Part shown: in pieces, positions 1,670-43,771 of the stretch
Position numbering within the stretch: position 1 is the first letter of the stretch
Layout: each line of letters begins with the position of its first letter
Assembly: GCA_900551145.1 (NCBI GenBank)
Contig: URUQ01000001.1
Span: 1-46,796 of the forward strand
From: an uncultured Eubacteriales bacterium
Lineage (GTDB): Bacteria > Bacillota > Clostridia > Christensenellales > CAG-917
Direction of reading: 5' to 3'
Length of the DNA stretch: 46,796 nucleotides
Made by a program: the position numbers and the translations under genes
The notes under the pieces: model-generated
The model's input: the letters and a program-made list of their open reading frames with translations, nothing else
Told to the model about the DNA's origin: nothing
Database searches by the model: none

Positions 1670-1671
1670 AG

Positions 1672-2868: not shown

Positions 2869-2878
2869 AATATATCTC

Positions 2879-4723: not shown

Positions 4724-4761
4724 AGTATTTTACCTCCTTTTTATGTAAAAGACGGATTTTG

Positions 4762-4789: not shown

Positions 4790-4923
4790 ATATATGTAAC
4801 GAGGATTTGACCGTCCATATATCGTATGTGCAAATATTTTTTTGCGTGAATACGTAACCCAAATCGCATTCGTTCGTATATTACGTGTAAAACACGGCAC
4901 GAAAGTGCAGCGAGGATATCGTT

Positions 4924-5784: not shown

Positions 5785-5835
5785 CCTGTCGTTTTGACGA
5801 TATAAAAGTCGTTTTATGCAAATAGAGGAATTGTT

Positions 5836-12167: not shown

Positions 12168-12178
12168 GAGGTGAACGT

Positions 12179-12736: not shown

Positions 12737-12761
12737 AATATACACAATGGGGGAGTATAAA

Positions 12762-15186: not shown

Positions 15187-15193
15187 ATTGAAG

Positions 15194-15222
15194 ATTTTAT
15201 CATACAATCGGCACACTGTCAA
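15194..15222 (-). promoter_or_regulatory. Sigma-A promoter (TTGACA - 17 nt - TGaTAAAAT) lying 7 nt upstream of ATG 15186; possible leaderless mRNA
   Basis: The minus strand reads TTGACAgtgtgccgattgtaTGaTAAAATcttcaatATG. The -35 is at 15222-15217 and the -10 at 15199-15194. Confidence 0.5.
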
Positions 15223-15627: not shown

Positions 15628-15650
15628 TGTCACGTATAATAATCTATCGT

Positions 15651-15672
15651 GCATACGCAAGTGAGCGTGTGC
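15651..15672 (+). promoter_or_regulatory. 5' UTR stem-loop immediately upstream of the RBS (possible 5' mRNA stabiliser)
   Basis: GCATACGC-aagtga-GCGTGTGC forms 8 bp including one G-U pair. The GGAGGA RBS is at 15677-15682. Confidence 0.35.
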
Positions 15673-15687
15673 CTTCGGAGGAAGATT

Positions 15688-15762
15688 ATGAGAATGAGAA
15701 AGTTATCACTCGTTTTGCTGCTCGTGATGGTCAGTGTTATGCTGTTCGGTCTCGTAGCATGT
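15688..15762 (+). other. SPase-II (lipoprotein) signal peptide with lipobox L-V-A-C
   Basis: The sequence is MRMRK (n-region), LSLVLLLVMVSVMLFG (h-region), LVA|C (lipobox). The Cys codon TGT is at 15760-15762 and is followed by NTSSGDNSTTPVIPTPNPGG, a linker-like stretch. Confidence 0.75.
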
Positions 15763-18700
15763 AATACGTCCTCGGGCGACAACAGCACTACGCCTGTTAT
15801 CCCGACACCGAATCCCGGCGGGGACATCGTCGACAACAAGACGATGCTCGATTCGCAGATTGCATGGCAATTGTTTAAGACGGTTGCACTCAATGCGGGA
15901 GCGGAAAGCAGTAGAGGCAGTCGTTACATATCGGTCGACACGACGTTCATACTCGGTTTCCAAAAAGACTCGTACGATTCTCTCGTGACGATGCGCTTTG
16001 CCGGTAAGATCGATACGGAAGCCAATTCGCAAGCCGACGACACTAGCGAAATCCTCGTTGAGTTCAGACAATTCAAAAACGACGAACTCGGCGACGCGAC
16101 GGTGGACGCGGACAGAATTACGACACTTTCGTCAAGCGGACAGGGCAAACTTCTTTGCGGCGCGTACTACTATGAGGGCAAACTCGTCACCGATATGCGC
16201 GGTCTTAAGAAAGGCGTTCAAGTCGCTTGGACGAAGGATATCGATATGGCCGCGTTCGTTGAGAAATTCAACGGATTGCTCGAAGACCTCAACCTCACGC
16301 AAGTGGTGTTTGACAAGCTCCTCGGCCTCGACGTCGGAGCGCTTATCAAGAAACTTGCGGGTCTCGATCTCGTCAACGTGACGGTGGAACAATTGCTCGT
16401 CAACGTTCTTTTGGGCGGTGCTCGTTCTCGTTATATCGATTACGGCAGCGGACACGCGGCATTGCAAATTCCTATTGACCTCGGCATTATCGTCGGGGCG
16501 ATTCCGCTCGTTCAAGGCTTGATACCCGAAAATATCACGGCTCTCGTAAAACAAATTCTCGGTCTCGATCTCGGCAAGCTCGGCTCTTTGGCCGGTATGG
16601 CTTTGTATCTCGAAGCGGATATCAGAGAGGCGAACACCGATAAGGCAAAACTTACGGGCATCAAGTTTGACATCGACACCAACTTCAATTCTTACGGCGT
16701 AAAAGAAGTCGAAGAAAGATACGGCAAATTCCAAAGCGAAGTCGGTATCTCTTTGGGTTACGCAAAAGCAGACTTTGCGGGCTCTCCCGACATTGACGTA
16801 AAGGGACTTCTTCAAAAACGCACCAAAGACAACGTACCGTTCGAAGACGGTGCGGATACTTCCGATAACTTCTATTCTCACGTTGAAACAAAAATTGCTG
16901 AAAACAAGCAAACTTATTCTCCCCTCACTCTCGATGCGGAAATCAAACTCACGCTTGACCTCAAAGAAGGCAAGTTGACCATTCAAAACGCAATCGACTC
17001 TTTCGGCACGCTCATATCAAATATAATCACCAAAAACGTATCTCCGGAAATGATGGCTTCGCTTTCCAAGTTGTTTGCGAAAGACATCGTTATCAACAAT
17101 CAAAAGATAGAACTTTCCGTCGCGTTGCAAGGCAAGATCAACACCAAGAACCCCAAAGAAACCAAGATTTTGGCGGAAGTTCGCGGTCTTGACAGCAAGA
17201 AGAGACTCGGCGCGTACTATGACGGCTCTCTCGAAGGCGTTTATATAGACGCAAGCGGTGTGCTCGGTGAAAACGGCACGAAGTTCAGAGTGGACGACAT
17301 CAACGTCAACGAACTTCTCGACAGCCTTATCGACAAACTTTTCGACACCATCAAAAACGCTATCAACGGCGATGCAACGGGAAGCGCAAGCTATGCTCAA
17401 CTCCTCGACGATGCGGACATCATTATCGAACACGACACTCTCGCGTCCGACAGCGTAGACACGATGAGCCTCATTTCCGCTATCGTGGAAAAGGTCAAAG
17501 TGGATATGGACGGAAATATTTTCAACATCAAAGGTATTTCCGTGGCACTTACGCAAGACGTCCTCGATATGATCTTCGGTCTTGTATTCACGGGTGACAA
17601 CGCAGGCGCAAAAATTCCGCTCGATTATGCGGAACTCAAATATGAAAACGACGGAGGACAACGCGAAAAACGCCTCGGTCTCACGGCAAAACTCCTTATT
17701 CCCAACTCCGATAGCAATATCAACAACGGTTTGGATTTGACGCTCGGATTGGGCGGTGCAATAACGTTCGGCAACATCAACAATATCGATTATTTCAACG
17801 ACGCTTTCGCATACGTACAAGAACACGCAAACGAGTATTTGCCTATCCTTTCCAACGGTGAACTCAACGCAAACCTCTTGCACGTCAACGTTTCTACGGG
17901 CATCAAGATTGATTTCGAGACGCTCAAAGGCACGCTTGCAGACCTCAAAGTCGATTTGCGCGACCAAGAACTCGGCGATTCGTTCAGAGGTATCCTCATC
18001 GATTTGCTTGTCGAGCTTGGCAACATCAAAGGCGGGCTCAAACTCGACCTCAGCGCGGACATTGACGCAACGGACGGTCTCGACCTCAACGCTATACTCA
18101 AATCCACCGCAAAGATAATCATCTCCAAGTCAAACGGCAACCAAGTGCTTTCACTCTACTTGCAAGACGGCGTTTTGTATCTCGACGCGTCGTTGTTGGG
18201 CAGTATAAAAGTGGACAAAATCAAGGTTGACCTTGCGGAATTGTTGCCCGCACTCGGCGTCGGCGCAAGCACTTCTTCCAAAGACGCTTACGTAGTCGAT
18301 GACGATACGCAGGGCGATGGCCTCGACACCGCGAAACTTATCGGTTTCATCGCGGGCGTGTTCCAAGGCGTCAAGATCGGCAACAACGCAATCGAAGTCG
18401 TCATCGGCGGCGGTATTCTCAACGAGCTTCTCACGATGCTTGGTATCAACAATCCCGCAACGCATTGGTACGACGAAGCGCAAGGCGATTACGTTGAAAT
18501 CGCAAAAACTCCCGCACCCGACGATTATACGGGCAAATATTATTATTTCGACGCTTCCGCCAACAAATACAAGGTGGCAAACGGCATCGATGTCAATTTT
18601 GAAAACTCCGATATCCAAGGCGGTATAAGAATCGCGCTCAACGACGGTCTCAACCTCAGCAAGCTCGAGCTCGGCGTATTCCTCGGACTCGGAAGCAGTC

Positions 18701-21700
18701 TCAACGCGGATATCTCCATTATGGGCATAACCGCAGGTCTTTCCGACCAATGCACCAAATATCTCGACGAGAACGATGCAAACGAATATCTCGAAATCTT
18801 GAAATATCCGTATATCTCTCTCGATTTGAGCCTCGGTCTCGACTTCCACGCGGACGAAGGTACGACTTTGATGCAATTCGGCATCAAGGGTACGCACTAC
18901 TTTGACGAAGAAACGAGACAATTCGTGGAAATCACCAAGGCCACTCCCGTTCCGAACGGTTATCTCGGAAAACTCTACTATTACGACGAGGCGGCAGGTC
19001 AATACGTTCCCGAAACGATAAATACGACGGAATTTACGTTTGAAAGAGATATGAAACTCAATTACGAGTTCCGCCTTGCGGGGCAAATCGATTTGTCGCC
19101 TATCCTCGCGTACTTGTTCGGTTCACCCGAAATCAGCACCAAAGACAACTCCACGTCCTTGCTCATCGAGCTTACGGGTAAGAAATTCGACTACGACCGC
19201 AAGGTTTTGCTCGGTTTGTACTACACGGGTAGCCAACTTTATATCGACGCAAGCAACTTTGGCATCGGCAAAGTCAAAGCCGATGTGGATTTGTATGAAA
19301 TTATCCTCGGATTGCTCGCAAAAGACTCCGTAGTAAGCATCAACGGCAACGGACAAGCGGTTGACGCAATGACGGCGGCGGAAGGTGACGCAACCGACAT
19401 CAAGGCAAAGAGACAACTCGCTTTGTCTATTATCGCTTTGCTCTCTTCAGACAGTCTCAAAATCGAACTTGCAAAAGGTTTGACCGAACTCGTATACGCG
19501 ATCCTCGGCGTTGACGCCAACGACGTCACGGCGTGGCTCGATATCGCTTGGGACAACCTCGAAGCACATGACGGCAAGTTCTTCCGCGTCAGCGGTTCGG
19601 TAAGCAACGTAAGCGGACAAGAAACGGGCGGTGCGGAAATTTACGGTCGTACGGTCAGTATCAATCTTGGCAATAAACAAGGTCCTACACACTGGTATAA
19701 CAACGCTACGGGTGAATATATCGCAGTGGCAGATCAACCCGCGCCCGCAGATTATATCGGAAAATATTATTACAACTGGTTTGGTACGTACAAAGAGTAC
19801 TCAACCGAAATTTTGATCGACCACAACGGTGAAAGCGTGCCGATGGGCAAATACTTGCAAGACAACGCCTTCGAGGACGCAAGCTTGTTCAACGAAAACG
19901 GCGACGTGACCATTCCCAGTATTTACGCGGAGATTAAGGGCACGATTTCCATCGGCGCAGACGCAGGCAACGACAAGTGGACAATCGGTGAATGGATTTC
20001 CAACTTCCTCGGCGACGACAACCCGAGCCTCAAATCCTTCATCGGTGATTTGCTCTTGCAATTCAACACACCGGTTGCGGCAGGTTCGGACATCGGTTTC
20101 CGTATCGCGCTCAACGCACGCCTCAATCCCGAAGTGCCTATCGATTTGTCGCAAAACGTTTACTATGTAAAACACGTTTTGACCACTCCGATTGCTTTGA
20201 CGAACGACTTCGATTACGTCGAAGTATACAAAATCGACGAAGCGGGCAAGAAATACGTTCTTTTGACGCAAGACGAGCGCAACACATATACGGGACAAGT
20301 GTTTGTCAAGTACTATAAGACAGATGGTATTGCGCTTGCCGAAACCAAACACGACGTCGCATTCAGAGGCGAAGCGTTTATTATCAAAGGTGACGCGGCG
20401 GTCAAGATTAACGTCACGGACGATAACGCAGAGAAGTACAAAGACGTGGCACTCTATTCGGCGGCGTCATTCCTCGATATCGCATATATACTCTCTCACA
20501 GCGACCTCGCAATCGAGATTTACAATGCAAGTATCGAAGATATCGACGGTATGAGCAACGCTCAAAAACTCGAAAAAGTTATCCTCGCACTACGCGTCGT
20601 TTATGCGGGTGAAGAGAACGGAAAGAGCGTAAGCACTCTCTATCTCGACATCAAAAACGACTTCCACCTTGCACTCACCAACATGCCGCTCGGTGACTTG
20701 CTCGGAGGTTTGCTCACGTCTTCGGATAGCACGGCAACGACCTCAGACGATACGCCCGATAATAACGCGAAGCCCGACATTATGGGCATTATCGGCTCAT
20801 CCCTCGGCAACCTCATCAGCCGTATCGGTATCGGCGAGGACAAAGTAAAAGTCAACTTTGCACAAGCGCTCGTAGCAACGCTCGTCAGTATGATATCCGG
20901 CAAACAAATTTCCGCGGACAACTTCCTCAAACTCGACTCCGACAACAGTTATCTCGCGTTTATGTGGAACAACGACTCTCCGTGGAAGAGCAACTATAAA
21001 CTTGACCTCAAAGTCAAGGCAGACCCTCTTTCTCTCGGTATCACGCTCAGCGGAATTGATATCGAAATCGGCAAAGACAACGGTGTTTTGCCCGAAGATT
21101 TCGACGCGTCCGTATACACGAGTTTTGAAAACCTCAATACTCTCTCTCTCAACGTCGAACTCGGTCTCGAACTCGGTCTCAAAAAGCAAGACGAGGAAAT
21201 CCGTCTTGAAAAATACATTGACCTTCTTATCAAGGATCTCGGTCTTAAACTCGGCATCGACTTCAAGGACGACGTATCGTACAAGATAGGTTTGACGGTT
21301 GGCGCAAACCTCGTTCTTAACGAAGCAAACGCGTCGAGAATGATTGTCGAAATCAAAAACGAAAATAACGGAGAAAGCATTCTTTCCGTGTACGTCGACG
21401 GCGGAGATATATACTTCGACTTCGGTGAACTCGGCGGAAACAAACCGTTCTATCTCAAAAATACCAACCTCAGCGAAGTCGTTTGCAACTACGTTAAGAA
21501 ATTGCTCGGCGACCTCAACAGCGTTGTAGGCAAGGGCGGAAACGACGCTTCCACGGCGGCAGATACCGCTGAACTGAGCGCAGACGAAAAGATGCAACTC
21601 ATTTTGGGTATCTCGGAAGGTAAACTCAGCGTTCTCGTTATGGAAAACGTCATCGTTGGGCTTATTGCGGCGATTACGTCCGGCACGAGCGGCGATATCG

Positions 21701-24700
21701 ACATCGCAAAGGTCCTCGAAGAGTTTGATCTCGACTTGTCCGTTGCGGTTGATTTCCAACTCGACCCCAGCCTCAGACTCGACCTCAACGTCGACAGCAA
21801 CCTAATCAACGTCGGTATCGGCGTCAAAGACATTGCATTGGCAACGGGCAACGACACGCAAACTCGCAAAACGATAGACGCCAAGGTTGACACAATCGTA
21901 AACAGCGGTAGATTTAAAGAGCTCACCGACGCACACATCATTGCAGTGGATTTGAGCCTCATCGTCGACTACTACGGCAGTGCAACGTACACCTATGTGG
22001 ACGATGAAAGAGCATTGAACAGAATCAATCCTGCCGAAAGATACTCGCTCAATGCGCACGACAACAGATTCGTACAAGACAACGACGGACGTTATATACG
22101 CGAAGGCTTTACGTTTGACAAACTTCTCGACGTAATCCTCGGAATGCAAGGCCTTGAAAGCATTACCAAGATGATGCTTCCGCAAATCCTCATATCCACG
22201 GCAAACAAGGAACTCGGTTTCACAACCGTAAAAGACGCGTTCAGCGTGGGCGATTTGCTCCAAAGATTGGGATTGTCTCTTGCGCTCACCGACAAAGTGG
22301 ACGACGGATTCAAACTCGATATCAACGCGCGTCTCAATCTCGAAGCTATGGGAATGAACGACTTGTCGCAACTCGATATCAAGAACCTCAATCTCGGTCT
22401 TGAAACGATTTTGGCAGGACTCGAGGCGCACATAGGCATCGATTTCACGTACGAACTCGGCGCGGCAAGCACCGCCAAGCTCGACATCTATCTCATAGAC
22501 GGCAGAATTTACGTCGACGCATCAGGTATCGGCGGTCCGCGCGTTCAAGTGGACTTGCTCGATTTGCTCGATTCTCTCGGCGTAGAACTCGCATCCTCTT
22601 CCTCGGATGCAATAATTGCAGACGGTGAAACTCCAAGCGATGATTCGACAAAAGATAATAATACTTCCGTTGACGTGGTTGGCATTGTCAACAAGCTCAT
22701 CAAGAATATTATCATCACCGCAAAACCGTGGGATGCGGGCTCTTTGGAGAACGGCAACAGAATAGACAACGTCGGCATCTTCTTCAGAAGCAACGCAATC
22801 AACGAGTTGCTCTCATTGTTGCTCAAGACCACCATCGAGTCCGACCAAGTGGTGCTTGACGAAAGCAACAGCGGATTGTATCTCTATCCGCAAACGGATA
22901 TGTTCGGCGACGACATGCTCGCTTTGAGACTCAGAGCGTCCCTCGCCAACAAGAAAGATCCGATATGGATTGCAAATGGTGAAGATTATCAACAATACAC
23001 GATGGATTTGGTGCTTGCACTCAACGCTCAAATAGGGCTTGAAAGCACTTCGGGCAACGAAGAAGGTATGCTCGATATCGACGAACGTCGCCAATTCATC
23101 TCACTCAACGAGTATGTCGAAAACATTCTCGGGCTTGTCAACGGCTTTAGAGACGAAATTTACTCCGTTGAAAAGACTCCGCTCGAAAACGGCATATACT
23201 ATGTCTTCAACGAAGATGCAAACGGCAACTATATCCTCAAATCCGGCATGTATCGTCCTATCAACGAAGGCGAAAATATTGCAGAAGGCACAAAACGTTA
23301 TTCTCGCGGTTATGCAACGATAGTAGGCCGCTATGTCGAAAACGCAGAGGGTGAATATATCCTCGACGCAACCAACGGCACCTATCGACTTATCTCAAAC
23401 GGCGAGGATGTAAGCGGCAAGCAACGTTATGCTTTTGTCGAAGAGGTTTATGCACTCACCTACGAAGAGGATGTCAACGGCGAATACGTCTACAACGAAG
23501 AAAAGGGTGTATATGTAAATAAGAATAGTGCGGACGCACCCGCAGGCGCGACAAAATATTATACGCGCACGATGACGGCTATCAAGGTTACGGATGAAAA
23601 CGGCAACGAAACAGTCGCAACCGTCAAAGACGTCAAAGTATATAAGAGAGCGGAAAAAGCGGTATATCAAGACCAAAACATCGGCTTGAGCGTAAGCGGT
23701 CTTATCTACTTCAATTCCGGCAGTGCGGAAACCACCAACGCAGGCGGTCTTATCAGCAACCTCTTTGGCGATATGATCATCAATTTGCAAACCAAGTCCG
23801 CATTTAACGCAGGTATCGGTGTGAGAATTTCCGCCAACGTTGACCTTGCGGCACTTGACTTGCTCGGCTTGATCTCGGGCGGTTCCATCGAGTCGTTTAT
23901 CGCAAACAGCGACCTTGATAAGGTGGAACTTGCAATCGAGTTTATCGAAGTGGACGAATACGGCTTCTTTGCAGAGTACGCAAACGGCGAGAAGAAAGTC
24001 CTCGGCGGATTGTACCTCAATCACGGTACTCTCTATCTCGACCTCACGGAAGTAGTCGACACGGCAGAAAACTACTCCAAGATCGACAACTTCGTTGATT
24101 TTGCAAAGAAAATCATCGATAAATTCCAGAAAGACGACGGACAAGGTCAAGATGCGACAGTTGCGGCGGACGTTCAGGAAATCAGTGCGGAACGTGCAAG
24201 TGCGGTAAGAGACGCAATGGTATTGCTCGCATACAGCGACGCTCAATTCCAAATTCAATTGACGCGCGCTTTGCTCGCATTCGTCATTTCTTCCTTCATG
24301 CCCGACCTCGGCTCTATCGAGGAAGTGTTCGACGTGTTCAATATTTCTCTCGGCGTTGACCTCGGCAGAGCGGAATTCAAGAAGATTTCCGACTTGTCTC
24401 CCGAAGAACAGGCCAAATTCGACAACGAATACAAAGGCGACAGATACAAACTCAACAATTCCACCGATCCGGAAGTCCAAGACACGTATTACGTGGAAGT
24501 GACAGACCTCGACGCATACTATCGCACCGAGAAGGGTGACTATTACTCGGCGGACAGCATGATACTCTATACCGGCGTCGACAATTATGTGGAAATCTCC
24601 AAAGTAGAAGCGTCCTCTTACACGGGTGCTATCTACAAAGCGGACGGCGAAAACTACGTCGAGCTTGCGGAAGGCGAGAAAGACACCTACGAAGGCACGA

Positions 24701-27700
24701 TGTACAAGAAAGTAACGACGTACGTCATCACGAGCAAGTACGAAGCGGGCAAGACCTATATCGCGCCCAACTCCAAGTACGAACTCATCACGGGCGTCGC
24801 ATACGGCAAATACATCAATAAGAACGACGACTATTACGGTCTTGTGAAGTTCGGTGAAGTCGAACAAAAGGTAAATCTTAGAAACTATAAGTTGTACGTG
24901 TACGACGGAAGCGCGCGCGTAGAAACGGATACGTTTATCAAAGATACCGAAAATAACTACTTCACCTACGTTATGTACAACGGTGAGCCCGTCAAGATCG
25001 AAAGCATTTACAAATATCAATTCGGATACGTCAAAGATCCGAACGGTGAATATTACCGCACGGTAACGTTGTTCGATTATATCAGCGAGTACTACCTCGG
25101 TCTCGATATCGCAATAGGTTGCGTCAATATGGGTCTCAAACTCGGCGGTTTGGATATCACCATCGGCGCAGGCAAGGAATTGTTGCCCGATTATATCCGT
25201 GACCAAAAGGCGCACTCCTACGTCAAAGACGGTGAAGAATACCTCTACACAAGCGACATTCCCGAAGAGGATATGGCACTTGTCGGCGAAGTCAAGACCA
25301 ATCCGTTCTATGACACAATCATCACGTTGTCTTTCTCTGTCGAATTCGAACTCGGCATCACCGAAGGCACGCTTGATTTCGGCCAAATTTTGAGCAATAT
25401 CATCGGCAACCTCGCGGGTATCGTGGTTGAAATGCCCTCTACTACGAAGGGTTATTCTTCCGCGCACTTCCGCCTCGACGTATCGCTTATGGTCGACATC
25501 TACGACCTCACCAAGTCCGAACTCAAACTCGAACTCATCAATATCACGGAGTCCGGTTATGAGAGCTTGTGGCTCGGTGCATACTATGTCAACAACACAA
25601 TCTATCTCAACCTCGAAGAAGCGTTCAATATCCAAAAAGTCGCAATCGGCGGTCTTAATATCGCGGAGATACTTGAAGACTACATCATCGATTTCGAAAC
25701 AACCGACGAATACTTCGATTACACCGACAAGACGGCTACGAGTTCCACCAAAGACGCATTCATAGCGTCCGACGACGCAACCACGGGTGACGATATCGAT
25801 TTCAGCAACAAAGACCTCGCTCTTGCAATCCTCATCAACAAGGATTTGCTTACCGTTGCGATCGGCGATATGCTCTTCGACACCATTCTCGAATATATCC
25901 CCGAAAGTTTGCTCGGCTTCGATATCAAAGACTTGTTCTATCAAGAGATCAACGGCAGTTTGCAACTCAAACTCGACACGGCAAACAAGATCAACCTCGA
26001 AGTTTCCGCAACCCTCGGTCTCGACGGTGAAAGATTCAATGCAGTCGGCACAGACAAAGTGACGCAAGCGGACGATCTCGCATCGGCAAAACTTTACGTG
26101 TTCCAACCGAGCACTACGGGCAACTTCGTATCGGGCAACGCCGGTCAATACTTCCGTGCAATCGCTCCCGGCAAAGACAAAGACGTCTTGGCAAGCGAAA
26201 GATACGAGAGATTTAGAATAGTCGAATACAACCCCGTAACCAAGGAAATCGTCGCAAAGAGAGTAATCGATAACAACAAGGGCGACGGTTCTGAAGTCCT
26301 TGACAGTGCAGAGAATATCTTCCCGCTCGCAGACACCAAGATTTACGAATTCGTAGCGGGAGCACAAGCCAACAAGTCCTACGTTTCCGACGGCGCGAAG
26401 TACGACACCACGCTCGAACTTTCTTTGGCAATCAAAGACCTCGACGTAGCGTTCACCAATTCTCGTACATACGTTTTGAGCGGTGATGAACTTGCAGAAT
26501 ATACCAACTTTGACGACGTAGACCGTTTCACGCTCGAAGAGACTATCGATATCTCCACGAGCTTCAAATACGGCAGCGACATCGATTTGAGCGTCGTGCT
26601 CGAAACACTCTTGCCGGGATTGAGCGGTGAAGATTTGCTCAAAATCAAGGCAGAGTCCGACACGAAGGGCGACGTAAACCGTTCGCTCCAACTCGTCGTA
26701 AAGGCGGATATCCAAATAGCGGCATTGCTCAACTATTTCCGCACCGAACTCGTCAAATACGTAGGAGACGACGACCAATTCGACGGAGATATGGACTTGT
26801 TTGTGGTTATTGATCTGCTCAAAAAAGTTCTCGATCAATTCGGTCAATCCGCTTTGACCGAGCTTGTAGCAAACATCGCAAGCTTTGTCAATCTCAGCGT
26901 AGTTCTTCAAACCAAGGGCGGTAACGATGCGGACTATCACGATTTGCTCGGCATTTATATGGCGGGCGGTACGTTTGAATTGCTCACCGACGCGGATATC
27001 GACGATCCGACGAGCGAAGATTATATCGCGCCGAGCGAGAGATTCGACCACTACTTCGAGACGAAGAACGGCAGTTACTATCTTGATTCCGACGGCAAAT
27101 ACAAACTCATCGAATCCGGCGAATACGCAGGCACCAGATACTCTTACGATTCGAGCTATTGCTACAGCAACGAAAAGGGTAGATACAAACGAGTCAACGG
27201 CGGTTTGTTCATCGATTTGAGCTACTTCAACATTCCGAGCGTAAAAGTGGATGCAAACGAAGTGCGCAAGCTTGTTTCCAGCCTCTTCACGGCGGGAACG
27301 ACGCAATCAGACGCAATCGCATCGGATGACGAACAACCAGAAGAAAAGCCGGAGGATAAACAAGATATATCCTTCCCGCTTGTAAAAGACGACACCATTC
27401 TTGAATATATCAGAGCGTTTGCATACGGATTGCAAATCACGTCCAGATATGTCAGAGTGCTGGCGCAACCCGACTATATCAACAAACTCCTTACTCTCCT
27501 TATGGGTGAGGACGCAATCCAATTCGACGATAGCGAATTCCGCAACAAACCGGCTGTTACGCTCTACACGGACAATACAAGATATTCTTACGAGCATAGA
27601 GCAGACGTCATCAATGCTTTCAAAGAGGAAGTCAAGGACATGACCGACCACACGACGCCCGCATACATCAAAGCGCGCAAAGAATTGGTCGGCGAGCTCG

Positions 27701-30700
27701 AACGCTCCAGAAACCTCTTTAGAATCCAGCCGTACAACGACGCAAGCAAGGGTTTGTACTATCTCGACGAGGACGGCGCGTACGTACAAAAATCCGATAT
27801 GTCCGCTGCTGATCGCGAGGCATACGACAAACTCGTCAACGCAGGCACGAAGGCTTACTACGACATCACCATGGTGACGACGTATATCCAAGTCGCAGGC
27901 ACTTACATCCCGTACGCGGACGCAAATCAATCTCAAATCAACAGTAGCGTTAATAACACCGAGATGAGAAACACCTATGGTGTGTCTATCCCCGAATTGT
28001 ACGTGTATGACGAGGCAAGTAAGACGTACGCCGTAGCGGACGACGGTGTATACAGCATTGTCAAACCGCTCGAAGCACGCAACGCATTCCTCGAAATCAA
28101 CCTCTACTTGTGGGATTACGAAGTATCTCTCAGCATTCTTGCACCCAAACTTGGCGTAACCAAATTCCATTACGTTACGGGTGAAGAGGTAGAGAACGCT
28201 CCGTATTACATCACCAACCCCGCAGAAGGCGCACGCTACGTCGACACAGACGAAATCATTTACACCAGCGTCGATAAAGAAGCGGACGGTTTTGATGGTT
28301 GGAAACTCGATTACGACGACGCAGACGGCAAGTTCAGCGTTGATAAGTATCTTGCTTCACCGCGTTATTACGAGTATAAGAACAAATATTACGTCATCGA
28401 CAATAACACCTTGTACGTAAAAGACCAAAACACCAATACGTATGAGCTTGCAACCAAGTACGGTGCATTCCCCGACTATCTCGCAGGCATTGCGCAAGGC
28501 AAGACGTATTACGTCTCCACGGGCGTTTCCTATACGGAAATTCAAAGAACGTTCATCTATAAGCAAGAGAAGTACAACACGCAAAAGAAGGTTCTCCTCT
28601 CCGATTTGCGCAAACAACTCCTTGCAAGCGGTATGAGCGAGGCAGAAGTCGACGAACAACTCAAAAAGTACGATCTCGACAAGAGCAGTTACTGGTTCAA
28701 AGTGCAACAAGACAGCAAGATTTTGCCGCCTGATTTCAGCGATGCGAAGTATGCGGATTACGAGTACAAAGAATATGTCGACACCGAAGACTTCTACTAC
28801 TTGTCATTGGCGCTTTGCGGAAGCCTCTTCTTGCAAGCGGGCAAGATCTACTTTGCTTACAACGACTACAAGCAAGTCTACAACACTCTTAACAATCCCA
28901 CCGGCGACCAAAATGCGGACGTCGAAATGGCTGTCCTCAAGAAGATCGCATACAAGAAGTATCACGGTGACTACGTACAAGTAACAGACGAGACCGAAAT
29001 CGAGGCTCTCAAAGACGCGGGACAACTCTACGTCTGGGTAAACAGCGCACTCGGTGACGGTTACGCAGGCATCAACGAGGCACTCGGTGACGTGCTCGGA
29101 GCGTTGCTCGGCAACCTGAAGGGCAAGTTCCAAGTGACGGAAGATATGACTTTCAACGTCTACTTCACGTTGCGCCTCAATCTCGGCTTCAAACTCTACA
29201 TTTTGCCGTCCTTCGGTATCGATATCCGCGACCTTGACGTTGCAATCGATATTTGGGGCGAACAAAACGACAAACTCGAAAACGGCGGATACGTATCCTC
29301 CGAAGACAGAGATAACAAGAATTACGAAGGCAAGTTGCTTGACGGCACCAAACCTCACATTCTCGGTATCTACTACAACAACGACCAAGAGACGGGCAAA
29401 GCAGGCTTGTATCTCGACCTCGAAGCGTTGCTCGGCAAAGACGCAAAACTCTACGTCGATATGAGTAGTTATTCGCTTGAATCATTGCTCACAGGACTCG
29501 TGGCAGGTTTCAACATCGACGCAGACGCATCGACGGCGGACGACAATACCGATAAGTACAATCCCGACAAGCAAGGTTCGGACGCGGTAAGTTTGTATCT
29601 CAACTTCTTTACGAATGCAATCGCACTCAACGTGACCTCCGGCTTTGCAAAGGCTCTTATCAGAGAATTGTTGCCCGACAACGCAAGCATCGCGGATATG
29701 CTCCCCAACCTCAAAGTCTACGTAAAACAAAACCTCAATCCGTACGACCTGACGATAGGCGCAATCTTGTTCAACGAACAAGGCGACATCCCCGTTGTCA
29801 ATCTCGGACTCAATATTCAAGGTCTCAACGGTGAGAGAGGCAAGTCCTCTTCAATCGAATTCGGCAGAAAAGAAGATATCCTCGCACGTCAACAAGGCTC
29901 GAATTACATCTTCTATTACGCCAACTTCTACCGTGACAATTCCAATGCGAATTACGACAATTATTACGGCAGAAACTTCGATGAGAAAGACTATATCAAA
30001 CTTTATAGAGGCGCAGACGGCAACGACTACTACGCCAAAGCAGACGGCGGTTATGCATTGACGGCAAAGGCCGACGGCACTTACGACGTACAAGCCATAG
30101 AAAACGGCGGATACGCACTCTACAAAGCGGGCAACGTAAATTATGGTCCGGAAGACAGATTTATGCGTGCCGACACCGTTCTCGAAGAGATCACGGAAAA
30201 CAGAAGATACTCTCTCGGCTCTCCGTATAATACGGAATATCAAAGCGTCGTATACACCGATATCAAAGGTCAATACGTGCTTGTCCAAGAGAAACTCAAC
30301 AACCTCACGAGCAGTGAATACAGATACCTTGCACTCAGCAAGCAATTTGCGGCTTTCAACGGCACGCTCTACGTTATCGACAAAGACGCCAACTACGTAA
30401 GAGTCAACAAGACCCAAATCCAAGGTTTCACGGGTTCGGGCAGCTTGCAATACGCACTCGAAGGCACGTATAACGCAAACGCAAGCGAAATCGCAAGAGC
30501 AGTCTCTTATAACGGCGCAACGTACTACCCGATCGACCCCGATAACAACGGTTACACGGATATGTACGAAGCGGACGGTTTCACTGCGTATACGAGCGGT
30601 GCAATAGTAAATAGAACGGGCTTGGTCTACACTGGCGAATTGTACGTGAAGAACGCAAAGGGCGGTTATGACAATGCAAACGTCAAAGTCGGCGACACGC

Positions 30701-33700
30701 TGGAAAGCGGAGTGCAATACTTCTATCCCAACGCACCCGAAAAGGCGTACAAAGTCACTTCCGACTTTACCAACTACGTCAAAGCGGTCAATCTCAACCT
30801 TTCCGATCTCATAAACGGTGCGAAGATGGATATCGCGTCAATGCTCGGCGACCTCAGAAGCCTCGAAATCGGCGCGTCTTTGAGCCTCGGAATGAAACTT
30901 TCCGACATCATCAACTGGACGTACCAACTCACGAACTTCATCGACGACGAGTCTATCTGCGATTATCTGTACTTCATCGCATCGTCGTTGACCGACTACT
31001 ATTCGTCCTTTACGAGTACGATCGGTCTCGATCTTGACCTCAAAGTATTCTTGCAAACGGGCGGACTGTTCAGAATGATTGCAGGTGACACCACCGCAAC
31101 TATTCTCGACGTCTTGGAAGGCGCAAAAGTGTATCTCGAACTCACTTATGCCACCAACTACCACGGCGAAAACGCACCCAAGGGTTACTTGTGGGTAGAA
31201 GTAAGAGAAGGCAAACTCTATCTCAACATCGACGTACACGAAATCGGTGAAATCGTCGGTTGGGGCGACTTCTTCTCCTACGGAGTAATCAACGGTCTCG
31301 ACCTCGGCGCGTTGCTTTCGGGTGGCAGTGCATCCCTCGCTTCTACGGCGGCGGATGAAGAGAACGACAATACGGGTATCTTGCCTGCAAATATTTGGGG
31401 CATTATCAACGTCGTCCTCGGCAGATTGCTCATCGCAAACGACTTTATCACGATCGGTTTAAACGAAACTCTTATCGCAGACCTTATCGGTATGCTCGCG
31501 GATAGCGACAGTGCGTTGCTTGCGGGTATCGGACAATTCTTGCCCAAACTCTACACCACCAACGATAAGGACACCAGCGGTATCACCATCAACTTCTACG
31601 GCAATCAACCCAGCGTCGATATCAACCTCGGATTCAAGGTCGGCACGACGTTCTATCTCAGTGTCGAAGACTACAACGCACAATACGGTGTGGGCGGAAG
31701 CCGTATCAAACAAGGTGAAGGCACGACTTGGACGGACGGTATGACCACGTTCGTCAAAGACGGCGACAACTACACGCAAGCAACTTCCTTCTCCGAAGAC
31801 AACTACGTGCTTGTCTCCACCGATGAATATGCGCTCATCTCGTACGCATTCCCGCTCTGGACTGGCGACAGATATTCGTACGAGAACGGCGAATTTAAGC
31901 TTGACAACGCCAACGGCGTCTACCTCAAACAAGGTGATTTCCGTCTTGCGATTTCTCTTGGCAAACTCTATGCAAGAGTCAACAAAGACTTCTCCGTCGA
32001 CAAGGACGAGAAGATGGCAGAAAGAGATAGCGAGGGCAATATTATCCGCGACGCAAACGGCAACGCTTCTTACGGACAATACGTAAGCATTCAAAACGCA
32101 AAACTCAGCCTCGATATGACGATCGACGTATCGTTGTACGGCAGTGGCAGGAAAGAGGACGGAAACGAAATCGATTTGAGCAAGATACTCGACTTGATCC
32201 TCGGTCTCATTAATCCGAATAGCGCAATCTCTGGCTCAACGTTGCGACTTGTCATCAAGAACGCAATCGGCAACGACAGCGGAGCGTTCCTCAAACTCAA
32301 CCTCACTGCAAACGTCGATCTCGAAAATTGGACGGTCGAACTTGCGGTAAGACTCAGAAGAAACACTGTCAAAGACGGTGAAAGCACGTTGCTCGGCTTG
32401 TATCTCGTAGACGACGCGCTTTACGTCGATTTGCAAGGCATACTCGGCGAAACGGCAAAGATTTGCGTAAACGGTCTCAACCTCAGCGGAAAGACGGGCT
32501 TGATCTACGGATTGCTCGGCAAGTACATCGACGGTGAAGCAGGCACTTCTTCCGACGCAAGCACTTCCGACGCAAGCGACATCGAAAAGATTGAGCAAAC
32601 GATGAGAGACTACGCGTACTTTATGATTATGGTCAATCCGCAAAAGTTCTTATTGCAACTCAATGCGGACCTTATCAACGTCATCTATCGCAAGATAATG
32701 CAAATCCGCGGTCTCGATTATAGCGAAGATCTGCTCCCCGACATCGGTGATATCCTTATTAGAGGCGAGACTCGTCAATACGAACTTCTCACCGAAGAGG
32801 AAAAGACGACGTACACGGGCGCAAGATTCCGTAAAGAAGGCAACAACTACGTATACGACGCAGCGGGTGATTATAAGTACGTTCCCGGCGCAACGAAGAC
32901 GAGCATCAACGTACGTTTCAGCGACGGCTTGTACTTCTGCATCGATATCCCTGCGGCTACGGCAAGCAAAGAAATCGTATCTATCAAGAGCGCAACGAGC
33001 AAGTACGGCCTTGCGGACAGCATCGCAAACGGTGAGTTTGGCGATCCTATCCTCGCACTCGACCTCAACTCGCTTATCAATGGCGGAAGCATCGATCTTG
33101 CCAGCCTCAAATTGCCGACAATCGGTTTGAGCACGGTCATCAACGTCAAGATGAAGTCCGACAATTTGAAACCCACCGACGCGAAGTACAAACTTTCGCT
33201 CGCACAATGGACGAGAGACCTCGTCGCGGGCTTGCTTGACGGCACGTCGTTGCTCGGAAACTTCAAGAAGATATCCGAAATGACCGAAGCGGAACTTGCA
33301 AAAGCGGGTAGCAAGACTTACAACTACAACTCTTCGACTCGCGCATACGACTACGTGGAGGACGGCACGGGTGAATACAAGTTCATTATGGCGGACCTCA
33401 ACATCACGATGGCGAGCGAACTTATCGAACTCCAAGTCAAACTCGATGCAAACATCAACCTTGCGGCGATTTTGGCATACGGTATCGGCGGTATCCTTTA
33501 CAGCGATATTGCGGTTGAAATCAGTGCACTCAATAAGCAACTGCTCAGCCTCTACTATCTCGGCTCTTCCAAACTTGCGAAGAACAACGATCCGAAGAGA
33601 AACGATTGGGAATTGACCACGGACGAAGACGGCACGGTGTTCTCCGACGCAATCTACATTGACGCAAGCGGTTTGGGACTCGGCAAGATTAAGTTCCAAG

Positions 33701-36700
33701 GCATCAGCGGTTTGCTCGGCGCATATCCGTATCAAAAGGTCAGCCTCGATGCAATTAGCAGTGCAGACAGCACGACTTCGGCTACGGACACCGGCGCATC
33801 CACTGCAGACGGTGAAGCACTCAACCTAACGGTTGAAATCGAAAACGGCAGTCTCGGCGTGACGTTCGACAAGGCGTTCATCACGACGCTCCTCGGAATG
33901 CTCAACGTCAACCTCGGTATCGAGTTGCCTCCCATCCAATCCGTATCTTTGGATATAGCAACTTCCACCACGGGACTTAAAGCAATCTCCATCGACGCAG
34001 TGCTCGACAGTGTGGGCACCGGTGCGAACATCTCTATCCAAGACCTCAAACTTGCGTTCAGACAAGAAGTGTTCAACGCAAAAGACGTTATCGAATCCGT
34101 TAAGACGGGTTACGCAGGCTTGACGTTCTCCAAGACGTCCGGCTTGATGTCCCTTGTCCAAAACGTTCTCGACAACCTCAAACCGGGTCTTAACATCAAT
34201 ATTCAAAACAAAGTATGGCAGGCGGTGCTCGACGGGGACGTCGCCGCAAAGAACGTTGGTTCAAACATCGTTCTCGACGGCAGAAAGGTGCTTACGTACA
34301 CCAACTTGTCCGATACATCCAAAGAAGAGCAGAACGCAGGCGAGAAGTACAATTTGAGATTTGCACTTTCAAGCTCTCGTGCAACGACGGGACTTACCGC
34401 AATCATCGGTGGTAACAATGCGTTCATCACCAACCTCTCTCTCAAGGGTACACTTATCAAGATAGCGCAAGCACTCGTCAGCTTCTTCGACTGCATCGAC
34501 ATCGGCAGCTTGCTCGGTTCTTCTCCGATGCTTGCTCTCGTCAGCGGAACGGACGGTGACGACGCAAGTTACGTCTATCCGTCGGCGGCAACCACCGCAA
34601 ACGACAAGAATCTTGCCAACATCAAGACGGGTTGGCAGGAAGACGGCTCATATTCTTACACGCCCAATTTGTCCGGCCTTATCAAGAGCGTTGATCTCAA
34701 CCTCTTCAATAACTACGAGTACTGGCCGTACTTTGCGGGTGCACAAGAAATGAGCAAAGGCGCAGGCAAGATTTCCGCGAAGGTCACGCTTGACAAAGAC
34801 GCTTACAACGAGTTGATTCTCATGGTCGATTGTATTGTTATGAACTTGATGAAAGCAATCGGCGATGATAACGAACCGTACATCGCGGACGTTGCAAAAG
34901 CGGGTAAATCCCTTGCAAATGCGGCAATCGACGGTATCGGCACAACCAACGAGTACAAGAACTTCTTCAACGGACTTGACGAACTCGTCAAGAGGAACGC
35001 AACCACACAAGAAAAAGTCAACTATGTTGATAAGGTTGCAAGATCCTTCCCGTTGACGCTCGTCAAGTGGATAATGAACTGTATTGCATTGCCTGCAATC
35101 AAAAATACAATCAACGTATCTTGGGGCACCGTTAAGAACCTTGCGGGTTCGACATTGCTCGACCTTATGAACCTCATCGGTGGCATCCTCCCGATTCCGT
35201 TCGCAAGCGGCGTCATAGACCCGTCAATCAATATCTACATCGACCTCGATCCCAATCCGGCGGAATACGGATGCAGCGGTAAGACGATGCAACCGGGTAT
35301 CCAAGCAATCGAGATTATGGTCAACGGCGAGAAAGCGGGCGCAGGCACGTCGATGAGATATAACAAAGCAAATGGCAACGCCGCAAGCAACACAACCATA
35401 ACTTCGAGTGTAAGCAACGGCAAAGATTTACCGAGCGACGTTTGGGACTTCTTTATGCTTCGTATCACACCGTACAGCACTACGGACGCAAGCTACACGA
35501 CGGGTATGTTGACGTTTGACGACGCAGACAGCGCAAGCGTCATCGGCGTGGAAAAAGTGCCGACCGAGATCGTCATAACCGATCCGGCAACTCGTACGGG
35601 TACTGCCTACTACAAGGGTGAAGAAAAGACCATCCAATTGCGCGACAGCTACTTCTTCAACGCAGAGTACTTCTCTCAAAAGGCGGATGTAAACTTCGCA
35701 TTGAAGAATGGCGGTAAGACCGTCAACACCTACAATCCGAATAGTCCGTATCAAGACGCAACCGGTACGTATATCGTTTGGGATGCGGCCTCCGTCGACC
35801 TCACGGCGGCAGACGACACCGATTCAAGTGGCAGACGCTTTGCGGGCTATGTTTACGGCTATGCACTTAACGTCGTTATGTATGCAATCCCCGTTTACGT
35901 AACCAACGATTACCAACAAACGGATATCAAAGCGTACGATTATAACGCCAATACCGGTAAGTTCGAGAGAAAGAACATCACGCTCGACATCGATAGTCAA
36001 AGCAAGACGTTCAGATCCGAATTGCCCAACCTCGTGCAAATTTCGTTCGCACGCGGTACGTACACGTTCGGTACGGTCATCACCGACGCGACGGGCAACA
36101 CAATGTATGCAGTCATCAAGGACGGCAACGGCTACAAGCAACTTGCAGGCGAAGAAGTCAATAAGGACGGCAACAAGTATAAGCTTGTGCCCGCGTACGT
36201 AGCGGGACTCGTCAAAGACGGCGACACGTTGCAAACCGTCAAAGAGGGTGACTTCACCTACTACGTGATGGATATGACCAAGATGCCGCAAGGAAGAAAC
36301 TTCCCGGCAGGCACTATCGCTTGGGATACCGAGGACTTCGAGTACGATTGGCAAGGTTCGACGACGTGGAAAGACGGCGAGGCTACCAACAGCATCAAAG
36401 TCGGTTATTCCTATCAATGGGGCAGCAGCAATACCGTCAAGAACAAGATTGAAATCACGGCAAAGAACTACAAGATTTCAAGACTCACCTCAATGACGGA
36501 CGCAAACGGCAACAAGGTAAGTTTGAGTAGCGAAAGCGACAAGAAGGGCAATTACACCACAGTTCTCAACATCGATGCTTTGGGCCTCACCACGGACGAT
36601 CTCGTCGGATACCTCAACGGATTCAACCAAGCAACGGTCAAGTACGTTGCGGGTGCAAACACGCCGACTATGAGCCTCGAATGGGATTTGACCTCACTCC

Positions 36701-39700
36701 AAGAAGCACTCAAATCCATCACGGGCGCAGACGGTACGATCGATTACTACAAGGGACTCGAAGCAACTGTCAAAGCAAAGGTCGGCGGTGACAGATTCAG
36801 CATCTCTTCGACGGTGACCAAGGAAGGTCTTGTAACCAACAAGACGGGCTTCGTCGGAAGCGAAACGACATACGAAGGCGTTTACGCACAAGAAGTAAGC
36901 GTCAAGATAGTCGTCAAGGGCAGTGTGTTCTCGTCACTCAACACAGCGTTGACGTTTGACGCGTACTCCGCAAGAGAGATCACGGGCGACGCACTCGGCG
37001 CAATGCTCGATATCAACTTCGCGGGCTCCGACACGTCCACCAAACTCCCCGTCGGTGACAAACTTCAAGTCAAAGCACCGTACGTCAAGATCGGCGACAA
37101 CTACGTCGTTGCGGACGGCAAGAACGGTGGTTATGCAATCGGCGCAAACGACCTCACCTTCGAGGGTTACAAGGCAACGGATTATCCGCTCTACGCACAA
37201 TTGACGATTGGTACGGAATTTAGCGGTAAGCAAGTGGTTTACGTTCCCATCACGGTAAGCACGGTCGCACCCACCACTTACAACGTTGACGTAGCACACG
37301 AAGACACCTTCAATCCGACGTGGTACAACAAAGACGCGTACAAGTCCTTCGACGTATCCTTCGGCACGACCACCAAGCACACGATGTACCCGGATTGGTC
37401 GACGGTAAACTATTACACCAACGCAAAGTGCACGACGCTTAAACCCGATCAAAACATCTACTCGGGCGGAACGATTTACGCACAAGTGCAAGCATACGTT
37501 TACGAGAAAGACGAAAATGGTGAGCCGATGTTCGACAAACCGCTCGGTCTCGTAGACACTGGTACGAAGGACGAAAACGGAAACAAGGTCTTCAAAGCGC
37601 AGACGATTACGCTCAAACTCAACGTCGAGCAACAATCCATCTTGTCCGTCAACTTCTTCTACGACGCACAAATCGGCGACGTCAACGCGTTGACCGACGC
37701 AGAGCGTGAACAAATCAAAGACAAACTCACCGATAAGGCGAACTACACGGGTACCGTTTACGGACAAACGCACGTCATCGGCTCGGAGGCGTTCGGTATC
37801 GACGCACTTGAATTTGCGAAAGACCCGAGCAAGTACTTCAGAACCGGCGCTTGGGGTGATATCAACGGCACAATAGTGCTCGTCAACCTCAAAAAAGGCA
37901 CGTACTCCGGCAAACGTTACACAATCCAAGAGAGCCTCAGCGGTGAATACAAGTACGACGAAGCAAACGACAGATATATCCTCGCAACCGCTTCCGACAC
38001 GGACGTAAAACGCTATGCGTTCACGCAAGACAACGACGGCGACTACAAATACGAGATCGCCAAGAAATCTTACGTAAAACTCACGGCGGGTGAAAAGGGT
38101 GAATCCTACCTCGCATACGTCCAAGGCTGGACGACCAAGATCGAGTCGTCAACCGTGACGGGCAGACAAACCAGAGTCTACGCGGTCATCGGCAACAACG
38201 ATATGGTCCCGATCGATATCCACGTGCCAGATTACACCGTGCAAACCGTATCCTTCAAGAACGGAACGCTCGTCCAAAACGGTGACGTCGCAAACGAATT
38301 GACTCTTACTTACGACGTGATGAACGCGTGGCAATTGCCTTCAACCGCGACCGTAACGGTCAAAGAGGGCGCAAAGGCGTTTGACACCGAAGTGTTCTGG
38401 GATGACAATTCTTCGCCCAACAAGGACGAATTGCGCAAGGACGAAAACGGCGTCTACGTCGTACGCAACTATCACTTCTTCGACAATCTCTCCGTGAGAT
38501 ATCCTCAAACGGGCTCGCTCGGCGCAAAGGTGTACCTTGACAATTACGATATCAACGTTACGATAACGCCCGACGGACAAGCGAATGAATATAACGTATT
38601 CTCGTCCTTCAAGTTTGCGTCTACCGCAACGGTCACCAAGAACGGCGTCGATTATCCGAACGTACCGCTTAAATGGGTTGACAAGTCAATGCCGACCGCA
38701 GAAGAAATCAAGGCAGGCAAGTTCACGAGAAAGGCTTACGTCGCGGCGTTCAGCGTCGGCGAAGACGGCACGATGACTCCTGTATATAAAGACTTCGAGT
38801 TCAAGATCAACAACGGGTTCACTCTTGACGGCATCGACGGCAACTATGCAGACGGCTTTGCAATCACTCGCGAAGGCGCGGCGTTCTTCCTCGGATTGCC
38901 GAGAGCAAGCGTTGTCAACGTCAACGGTGAGAGAATAGAAGTCGCACTTGCGTGGAGCGACGCATACACCAAGGAAGCAGGCTTCAACGGCGATATGACG
39001 CTCACTATCGCGAGCAAGTGGCTCACCTCCACCGTCACGGCAAACGTAACGGTCAAGGGCGAGAGCATTGACAGACTCAAAGATTACGACGGCACGCCGT
39101 ACTCGTTTGATCCGTTCTGGAAAGAAGGCAACTTCTTCCGCTCGGGTGAAGTCAGAACAATCGTCACCAAGGGTAGCGCACTCGAAGCGGGCGTCACGGT
39201 AACGTATTCGCTTGCGGATATCGATCCTGCAAACCTTAAGAGCGACGCAGACTTCTACGCCAACGTCAGCAAGTACTTCGGAAGAAAGTACACGATAGGC
39301 GTGACTTACACCTACTTCGGCGGTGCAGACGTGATGACGGAGACGGGCACTATCGATATAGCAGTCGGTGACAGAACCGTATTGTTCGTATCCGATTATG
39401 CGTATCGTGCAATCTTGGTCGACACCTTCCTCAACACCGACGCAAGCTATCTCGAAAGAGAGCTCTGGGTTGCAACGGCAGGCGTATGGGGCGACGTGCT
39501 TGCATACTTCGATTGGACGCAAGTGGACGCACTCATCAAGGATAGAAAGAGCGACTCCAAACATATGGCAACCGTAATCGTCGGTATCGAGAGTGCGGAC
39601 GGACAATACGTCTATCAAGATATTTACGGCACGCACGTTGACGAAAACGGAAACGTCTTAATGGGCGACGGTAAGAAAGAATACGTGACGATTGACGAGT

Positions 39701-43749: not shown

Positions 43750-43771
43750 TAATCGCTATAACGGAATATAG

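Follow-up and report, generated by a model that had tools for sequence, protein, structure and literature searches.

Giant repetitive surface proteins are known, as a general kind, from gut Firmicutes. Very large genes have been described from gut Clostridia, and binding to cell surfaces is the role proposed for their products (West-Roberts et al., bioRxiv 10.1101/2023.11.21.568195). The giant surface proteins and fibrillar adhesins of Gram-positive bacteria are exported, very long, and combine a stalk of tandem domains with a binding region at the far end; in typical adhesin stalks the repeats are near-identical and variable in number. Arrays of another kind are found in bridge-like lipid-transfer proteins, or BLTPs, where each repeating β-groove (RBG) unit consists of five antiparallel strands that curve like a 'taco', with an unstructured loop at the end; the unit is essentially all-β, and RBG units are preceded by a Chorein-N domain (PMC12066543). 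This article deals with a giant gene in a 46,796-nucleotide stretch of DNA (contig URUQ01000001.1; 'the window' below always means this whole stretch) from an uncultured member of the Christensenellales. Most of these bacteria are uncultured; within the human gut microbiota they form a heritable group that is associated with health. The gene encodes an exported protein with 14 copies of a module that, judged by sequence comparison, is a new, clearly delimited domain family without a named relative.

The part of the window that first drew attention, positions 16159-33720, falls wholly within a single open reading frame (ORF) at 15649..42399 (+), which has a GTG start at 15649 and translates to 8,916 residues. 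The true start is almost certainly the ATG at 15688, giving an 8,903-residue product, because a Shine-Dalgarno sequence, GGAGGAAG, precedes this ATG and the N-termini of homologues begin MRMRKLSLV.... By sequence and composition the protein is very long, acidic and nearly free of Cys. A lipoprotein signal peptide is followed by the 14 modules with their acidic, Ser/Thr-rich linkers and Tyr-rich insertions, and then by a module-free region of ~2,800 residues. At ~27 kb the gene takes up about 1.6% of a 1.65-Mb genome, and it is intact over about 4,600-4,700 aligned codons in five orthologues.

An earlier note on this DNA, made from the letters alone, had claimed 13-14 ancient copies of a large unassigned module, and this claim holds. 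All 14 core coordinates that it listed lie in frame 1 of the ORF and show the peptides quoted. A hidden Markov model (HMM) of the family, built from 676 module instances of other proteins with the giant protein left out, matches 14 of 14 positions. The scores are 13.9-98.5 bits over all copies and 42.7-98.5 bits for the complete ones, whereas none of 20 shuffles of 6,100 residues exceeded 3.0 bits. In a leave-one-out comparison, each of the eight copies classed as strong is matched by an HMM of the other seven at 12.8-42.6 bits, while shuffles peak at 2.8-9.2 bits and stay below the score of the left-out copy in every run. The repeats are thus statistically significant and keep a consistent register over about 194 positions, as had been expected. 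Iterated searches confined to the protein and four N-terminal fragments yielded 11 robust modules and left the copies at aa 171, 3766 and 5179 at noise level; the family HMM recovered all three. BLASTP of 300-residue windows returned just seven off-diagonal pairs at E ≤ 1e-3 and was too insensitive, so that HMMs were used instead.

At the protein level, pairs of modules are 19-22% identical. The copies share almost no DNA identity, as the note had also said: blastn of 16159-33720 against itself yields no off-diagonal match at E ≤ 1e-3. Core-to-core spacing is 250-805 residues, or 0.75-2.4 kb; the upper limit of the 1.0-2.4 kb given previously is therefore right and the lower limit too high. 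In the same way, the array was correctly located, with an extent that was drawn slightly short, since it runs from 15967 to 33909. The copies described as weaker are real modules, two of which (5 and 10) are interrupted by insertions, and the first (aa 171) is partial. Module 5 is one module split at aa 1492/1582, with a Tyr-rich insert at aa 1517-1563 between its parts. In module 10 the tyrosine hairpin is broken by a Tyr-rich insert (aa 3787-3849) into two pieces, LLGIYMAGG (aa 3766) and GLFIDLS (aa 3850).

The family-wide consensus of the module begins with ...LsLslsleLsl...idLgdlLg.Ll...L.LdL.anLDl...seL.LeL...lLgIYY.gg.LYLDls.lG.pkIkIeg and continues with lDL.dLL.gl...eaasad...ll..I.isdg.L.L.Lt.dlL..LLglLgV. 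Its elements follow a fixed order: alternating strands, the tyrosine hairpin lLgIYY.gg.LYLDls.lG, the segments pkIkIeg and lDL.dLL.gl, the acidic linker, rich in Ser, Thr, Asp and Ala, and the closing stretch ll..I.isdg.L.L.Lt.dlL..LLglLgV. The five elements that the note had listed, from amphipathic strands through hairpin core, short motif and acidic linker to an aliphatic end, are all present in this order. The hairpin with its two tyrosines, L-x-I-Y-Y-x-x-G-x-L-Y-L-D, is near-invariant; the well-conserved positions are confined to the hydrophobic core and Tyr98, Tyr105, Asp107 and Gly112. The family-wide consensus contains no conserved His, Cys, Lys, Arg or Glu position, and therefore nothing in the module suggests catalysis.

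The alternating, amphipathic strands hold up: they are conserved throughout the family, both in the consensus and in the hydrophobic periodicity of the profile. For each core of 194 positions, this periodicity predicts 7-8 β segments together with 3-4 short amphipathic helices and a single polar linker. Two AlphaFold2 (AF2) models were obtained. Model 1 covers aa 5477-5699 (15 alignment rows), with a mean predicted local distance difference test score (pLDDT) of 62.5 and a predicted template-modelling score (pTM) of 0.51; model 2, a linker-to-linker unit, covers aa 598-874 (23 alignment rows; mean pLDDT 65.8, pTM 0.48) and includes the N-terminal and core parts of module 3. The hairpin region is the most confident part (pLDDT 77-87), and the acidic linker, contained in model 1 only, stays below a pLDDT of 50. 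Model 2 gives 10-11 strands and 5-6 helices per minimal period of ~270 residues. Profile periodicity and both models alike indicate a mixed α/β unit of ~200 residues that is not all-β, contrary to the extended, purely β structure proposed in the note. As a compact domain, the linker-to-linker register was modelled no better than the register of the note (pTM 0.48 vs 0.51). Mean-field direct coupling analysis of 524 module sequences, aimed at strand pairing, was swamped by gap and truncation artefacts and was dropped.

The acidic linkers after the cores (aa 570-6045) share a loose motif, D-A-[ST]-[ST]-x-x-D, with examples such as NDASTAADTA, QDATVAADV, ADASTADD and LDAISSADS. The motif could be a candidate glycosylation or processing site.

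Sequence searches for known relatives of the module were negative in Pfam, NCBIfam and the PDB. Pfam gave no match at E ≤ 1 for aa 1-4500, no family common to more than one of 23 single units at E ≤ 10, and no domains in distant homologues of the giant protein; NCBIfam did not match the protein either. In particular, Chorein-N, AsmA, AsmA_2, TamB (DUF490) and DUF3971 were absent at both Pfam cut-offs, and neither Pfam nor NCBIfam recognised a stalk domain (Ig-like, Rib, SHIRT, G5 etc.) in the 14 modules. No sequence relatives of the module profile or of the C-terminal region were found in the PDB. These results agree with the view of the note that the repeat family is new and unassigned, and literature searches turned up no description of a Christensenellales giant protein of this kind.

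Structure comparison with Foldseek, using both AF2 models against the PDB and one against BFVD, produced no match at E ≤ 0.001. The best matches have E values of 0.011-0.085 and template-modelling (TM) scores ≤ 0.28, obtained with single-unit query models of moderate confidence. The top non-significant matches are ORP/Osh ORD domains (E 0.011-0.03, TM about 0.2), JlpA, porins, LolB (probability 0.72 over 75 columns) and LptD. TamB, Vps13, Atg2, β-solenoid and Ig-like structures do not occur among the matches listed (query pLDDT 62-66), and alignment of two sets of modules (A1 and A5) with E. coli TamB by hhalign gave probabilities of 0.2% and 0.3%. The suggestions of a β-solenoid, an Ig-like or RBG fold, or a TamB-like lipid-transfer groove thus found no backing.

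The family is thinly spread. A word-indexed search of 5.8 billion proteins retrieved just a handful of N-terminal fragments. When 1.84 billion cluster representatives were searched exhaustively by HMMER with the module profile, 152 proteins reached E ≤ 1e-3; many of them span 5,600-7,900 residues with 13-16 matched stretches. None of 10 full-length homologues is named in any source. A scan of one genome per GTDB species located 26 loci, all in uncultured gut Clostridia or in metagenome-assembled genomes labelled 'Christensenella sp.'; these include an ortholog of 94% identity (UBA7571) and a complete 1.65-Mb chromosome. By these searches, the family is rare and restricted to Christensenellales-like gut genomes.

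Complete members of more than 5,000 residues number 21 with the giant protein counted. Of these, 17 have exactly 14 module cores and four have 15. The total length varies between 5,600 and 8,900 residues, with 3,800-6,100 in the array and 900-3,700 in the C-terminal region. Against two orthologues (P0005 and P0012), each of the 14 modules pairs best, and by a large margin, with the module at the same ordinal position. The ratio of non-synonymous to synonymous substitution rates (dN/dS) against five orthologues is 0.12-0.16 over about 4,600 aligned codons, with 0.09-0.16 for the modules and 0.13-0.18 for the Tyr-rich inserts. Every part of the giant gene is under purifying selection, and the repeats are old and selected, as the note had proposed. 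The shared module count, the positional orthology and the dN/dS values together lead to the conclusion that the duplications predate the family and that their number has since been frozen. This would be achieved by divergence itself, as the copies are presumably now too different in DNA to recombine.

The N-terminus has the anatomy of a lipoprotein signal, MRMRK-LSLVLLLVMVSVMLFG-LVA-C (aa 14-38), whose basic n-region, hydrophobic h-region and lipobox (pattern [LVI][ASTVI][GAS]-C) together make up the signature of a signal peptidase II substrate. This is the sole transmembrane-like, strongly hydrophobic segment of the whole protein. All 21 complete family members have a lipobox-type signal. Among the 22 homologues of more than 5,000 residues it occurs in 20, the other two being fragments that lack the N-terminus. 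There is no C-terminal LPXTG sortase signal or wall anchor; the protein ends in ...TMTYENGTWSVQ and has no C-terminal hydrophobic segment. A lipid on the N-terminal Cys is predicted to anchor the protein to the cytoplasmic membrane, on its outer face.

Tyr-rich segments of 47-250 residues lie between and inside the modules (window positions 18427-31000). They contain strings of the YYxDxxGxY type, as exemplified by THWYDEAQGDYVEIAKTPAPDDYTGKYYYFDASANKYKV and NGSYYLDSDGKYKLI, and look like choline-binding or YG-type hairpins; two stretches (aa 931-966 and 1340-1375) are 55% identical to each other. Pfam searches with 10 inserts gave only sub-threshold, inconsistent matches (E values of 0.095 for Choline_bind_3, 0.14 for OCRE and 0.065 for CBM_5_12). 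Judged by the CW_binding_1 and Choline_bind profiles, one of the 10 inserts gave a weak signal below threshold, to Choline_bind_3 at 13.1 bits against a cut-off of 27, and the whole protein gave none. The C-terminal region probably consists of Ig-like β-sandwich domains. In this third of the protein, Pfam returned sub-threshold matches to aRib and to Big_4 (20.7 bits, with the cut-off at 22.1), and a homologue of the region with 50% identity, which carries PF07532, is named 'Ig-like domain-containing protein [Christensenellales bacterium]'. The coordinates of all parts of the protein are collected in Table 1.

Table 1. Parts of the giant gene and its product. Residue numbers (aa) refer to the 8,916-residue translation; bit scores of modules are those with the family HMM.
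Feature	Position in window	Strand	Evidence
Giant gene	15688..42399	+	8,903 codons plus stop; ORF list and translation
Lipoprotein signal peptide MRMRKLSLVLLLVMVSVMLFGLVAC, lipobox L-V-A-C	15688..15762	+	read directly from sequence
Module 1 (aa 107-212), partial, degenerate; core GAYYYEGKLV at aa 171	15967..16284	+	13.9 bits, E 2.6e-6
Module 2 (aa 423-646), core aa 520	16915..17586	+	89.8 bits; leave-one-out 29.7
Module 3 (aa 742-933), core aa 834	17872..18447	+	78.0 bits; leave-one-out 27.6
Module 4 (aa 1126-1288), core aa 1187	19024..19512	+	77.5 bits; leave-one-out 33.9
Module 5, first part (aa 1424-1492)	19918..20124	+	23.5 bits, HMM positions 4-66
Module 5, second part (aa 1582-1749), core aa 1661	20392..20895	+	42.7 bits, HMM positions 37-192
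Module 6 (aa 1828-2009), core aa 1911	21130..21675	+	87.3 bits; leave-one-out 21.7
Module 7 (aa 2189-2391), core aa 2278	22213..22821	+	78.6 bits; leave-one-out 24.2
Module 8 (aa 2676-2883), core aa 2785	23674..24297	+	72.9 bits; leave-one-out 22.3
Module 9 (aa 3225-3416), core aa 3307	25321..25896	+	98.5 bits; leave-one-out 12.8
Module 10 (aa 3624-3951)	26518..27501	+	48.7 bits
Module 11 (aa 4475-4671), core aa 4571	29071..29661	+	48.6 bits
Module 12 (aa 5071-5283), core aa 5179	30859..31497	+	42.7 bits
Module 13 (aa 5484-5681), core aa 5581; target of AF2 model 1	32098..32691	+	90.3 bits; leave-one-out 42.6
Module 14 (aa 5925-6087), core aa 5965 and about 5995, 25-aa insert in hairpin	33421..33909	+	60.5 bits
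Tyr-rich segments, first six (aa 927-988, 1080-1145, 1336-1413, 1517-1563, 2516-2645, 2919-3167)			
Tyr-rich segments, last six (aa 3787-3871, 4032-4158, 4204-4444, 4733-5009, 5372-5426, 5705-5751)			
Module-free C-terminal region (aa 6088-8916), Thr/Val/Tyr-rich	33910..42396	+	no module matches; composition

Long antisense ORFs tile the giant gene at window positions 16132-41304 (-), for example 23395-27306 with 1,303 residues. All 12 of the 12 checked are in exact codon register with the gene, whose 8,903 codons include only five TTA, three CTA and 38 TCA, the codons whose reverse complements are stop codons. It follows from this near-avoidance that the antisense ORFs are by-products of codon usage and not genes.

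Divergently from the giant gene, at window positions 14056-15222 (-), lies a gene for an Acyl_transf_3/HGSNAT-like membrane acyltransferase. Among 26 related loci, 24 have it as a neighbour of the giant gene, and the remaining two have too little upstream sequence. Members of the Acyl_transf_3 family acylate envelope glycans. Synteny extends to a GH127-like gene and several other neighbours, and may reflect just conserved gene order. Between a conserved gene at 12164-12736 and the acyltransferase gene, a 403-residue ORF of the FtsK/SpoIIIE ATPase family at 12711-13922 (+) has a counterpart in none of the 26 loci; the gap in the 94%-identical locus is about 270 bp, and the ORF looks like a strain-specific insertion. 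Directly downstream of the giant gene, the region 42634-44845 (+) encodes an SPFH/Band-7 protein, which has three zinc ribbons at its C-terminal end, and another zinc-ribbon protein. Further away, near a ParA-like ATPase and two genes of the HGD-D (2-hydroxyglutaryl-CoA dehydratase D-component) family, a 250-residue ORF at 3971-4723 (-) carries triple-helix repeats of the collagen type (Pfam Collagen, E 4.6e-15) and might encode a further surface or exosporium-like protein.

As to function, the reading favoured here, for which the case stands about evenly balanced, is that the modules form the structural stalk or scaffold of a giant lipid-anchored surface protein, of which they make up the membrane-proximal two thirds. 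The lipidated N-terminal Cys would hold the protein on the outer face of the cytoplasmic membrane, and the 14 modules would build a long stalk or scaffold of set length that crosses the wall. Beyond the wall, this stalk would display the C-terminal β-sandwich region, possibly together with the Tyr-rich inserts, and the displayed parts would bind host, glycan or partner-cell surfaces. Cultured Christensenella flocculates with partner methanogens (PMC7002349), which is context and not evidence for the giant protein. With the fibrillar adhesins, the protein shares export, great length, an acidic and nearly Cys-free sequence, a tandem array of one module, a probable Ig-like distal region and a host-associated lineage. 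It differs from them in that the anchor is an N-terminal lipobox rather than a C-terminal LPXTG signal, and in that the module lies outside all stalk families known to Pfam. Moreover, the unit is an α/β unit of ~200 residues instead of a β-sandwich of ~100, and it occurs in a fixed number of 14 copies with an identity of about 20%, whereas the repeats of adhesin stalks are near-identical and variable in number.

Several points weigh against the stalk reading. No recognised adhesive domain rises above its curated threshold. The module number is fixed and positionally conserved, unlike that of typical adhesin stalks, and may point to an architecture more specific than a simple spacer. Both AF2 models are just moderately confident (mean pLDDT 62-66, pTM about 0.5), and lipid modification and surface exposure are deduced from the amino acid sequence alone.

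Among the alternatives, the one that survives best, though it is unlikely, places the protein within or along the wall as an envelope scaffold. The Tyr-rich inserts would then grip wall polymers in the manner of choline-binding or cell-wall-binding repeats, and the array would serve as a ruler that spans or organises the wall. Consistent with a scaffold are a module number that is fixed and conserved by position, an N-terminal lipid anchor in the membrane and the commitment of about 1.6% of a 1.65-Mb genome to one gene. A grip on wall polymers could be read from the YYxDxxGxY-type strings and the sub-threshold Choline_bind_3 (E 0.095) and CBM_5_12 (E 0.065) matches; however, these hints are inconsistent as well as below threshold, with one of 10 inserts per family. 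An envelope role is also in keeping with the divergent Acyl_transf_3 gene that adjoins the giant gene in 24 of 26 loci, but the synteny covers many neighbours and may mean conserved gene order only. Finally, an Ig-like C-terminal region of 2,800 residues is a better fit to a displayed binding part.

Considerably less probable is a bridge-like conduit, in which the module strands form a long groove or open β-barrels that move lipids and other hydrophobic molecules off the membrane, in the manner of RBG/AsmA proteins or of the LolA/ORD type. The likeness to RBG, AsmA, TamB and YhdP proteins lies in the N-terminal membrane anchor, the fixed count of amphipathic-strand units and the disordered loop that ends each of them. 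In keeping with a conduit, the long strands are strongly amphipathic throughout the family, each module ends in a helix and then a disordered loop, and the unit number is fixed, as it is in BLTPs with 6-17 RBG units (PMC12066543). The top Foldseek matches, although non-significant, are open antiparallel-sheet lipid binders (ORP/Osh ORD, LolB, LptD). The linker-to-linker model shares long antiparallel strands and a few helices with the OSBP-related ORD, LolA/LolB and JlpA; these matches (E 0.011-1.2, TM 0.16-0.28, root-mean-square deviation 5-18 Å, moderately confident query) are not significant and serve as a lead, not a match.

With RBG proteins themselves there is no match in sequence, profile or fold: AsmA, TamB and Chorein are absent from Pfam results at E ≤ 1, and per unit at E ≤ 10, the hhalign probability against E. 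coli TamB is 0.2-0.3%, and no RBG structure occurs among the Foldseek matches listed, all of which have TM ≤ 0.28. The module core has 3-4 conserved helices, and the unit more than five strands, against five strands plus a loop in the RBG unit (PMC12066543), so that it falls outside the RBG definition. The anchor is a lipid and not a transmembrane helix or Chorein-N domain, and the far end is a large β-sandwich-like region of 2,800 residues, not a membrane-docking element. Nor is there any evidence of a second membrane in the host. It would be a long shot to see in the array a new fold that builds a defined superstructure of fixed unit number, perhaps a long hydrophobic groove or a chain of open barrels, with a lipid anchor at the membrane of a bacterium of the Gram-positive type, which moves or holds lipids or other hydrophobic substances across the wall or towards a partner cell. 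As part of that same joint and equally improbable reading, the array would be a BLTP analogue that arose independently of the RBG/AsmA superfamily.

The weakest alternative denies that the repeats are homologous and puts the periodicity down to the composition of a Leu/Asp/Tyr-rich sequence. It might appeal to the pairwise identity of just about 20%, the few BLAST pairs (seven at E ≤ 1e-3) and the three copies at noise level with the first within-protein HMM, but is refuted by the leave-one-out test (12.8-42.6 bits against at most 2.8-9.2 for shuffles in the same runs), by the HMM from other proteins (14 of 14 copies at 13.9-98.5 against 3.0 bits) and by an element order and register that are consistent across about 194 positions, and its probability is negligible.

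While the giant proteins of the survey by West-Roberts et al. carry known repeats (RCC1, Listeria-Bacteroides repeat, YG repeat and dockerin among them), Pfam assigns the present module to no family; that survey names neither Christensenellales nor lipoproteins, and the family described here is absent from it (bioRxiv 10.1101/2023.11.21.568195). What is unusual is the combination of an N-terminal lipid anchor, α/β modules of ~200 residues, a frozen count of 14 and giant size in a small genome.

The gene is by far the largest of these Christensenellales and, although conserved and subject to purifying selection, has no annotation at all. The module definition gives curators a clean new family with about 690 instances and a clear consensus, and would let annotators spot fragmented pieces of the giant gene in metagenomes. 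For a surface protein, a count frozen at 14 modules that are orthologous position by position is unusual, and it suggests functional constraint on length or architecture. If it is true that the protein attaches to host mucus or to partner microbes, methanogens for example, it would be a leading candidate for the factor behind the colonisation and aggregation of Christensenellales.

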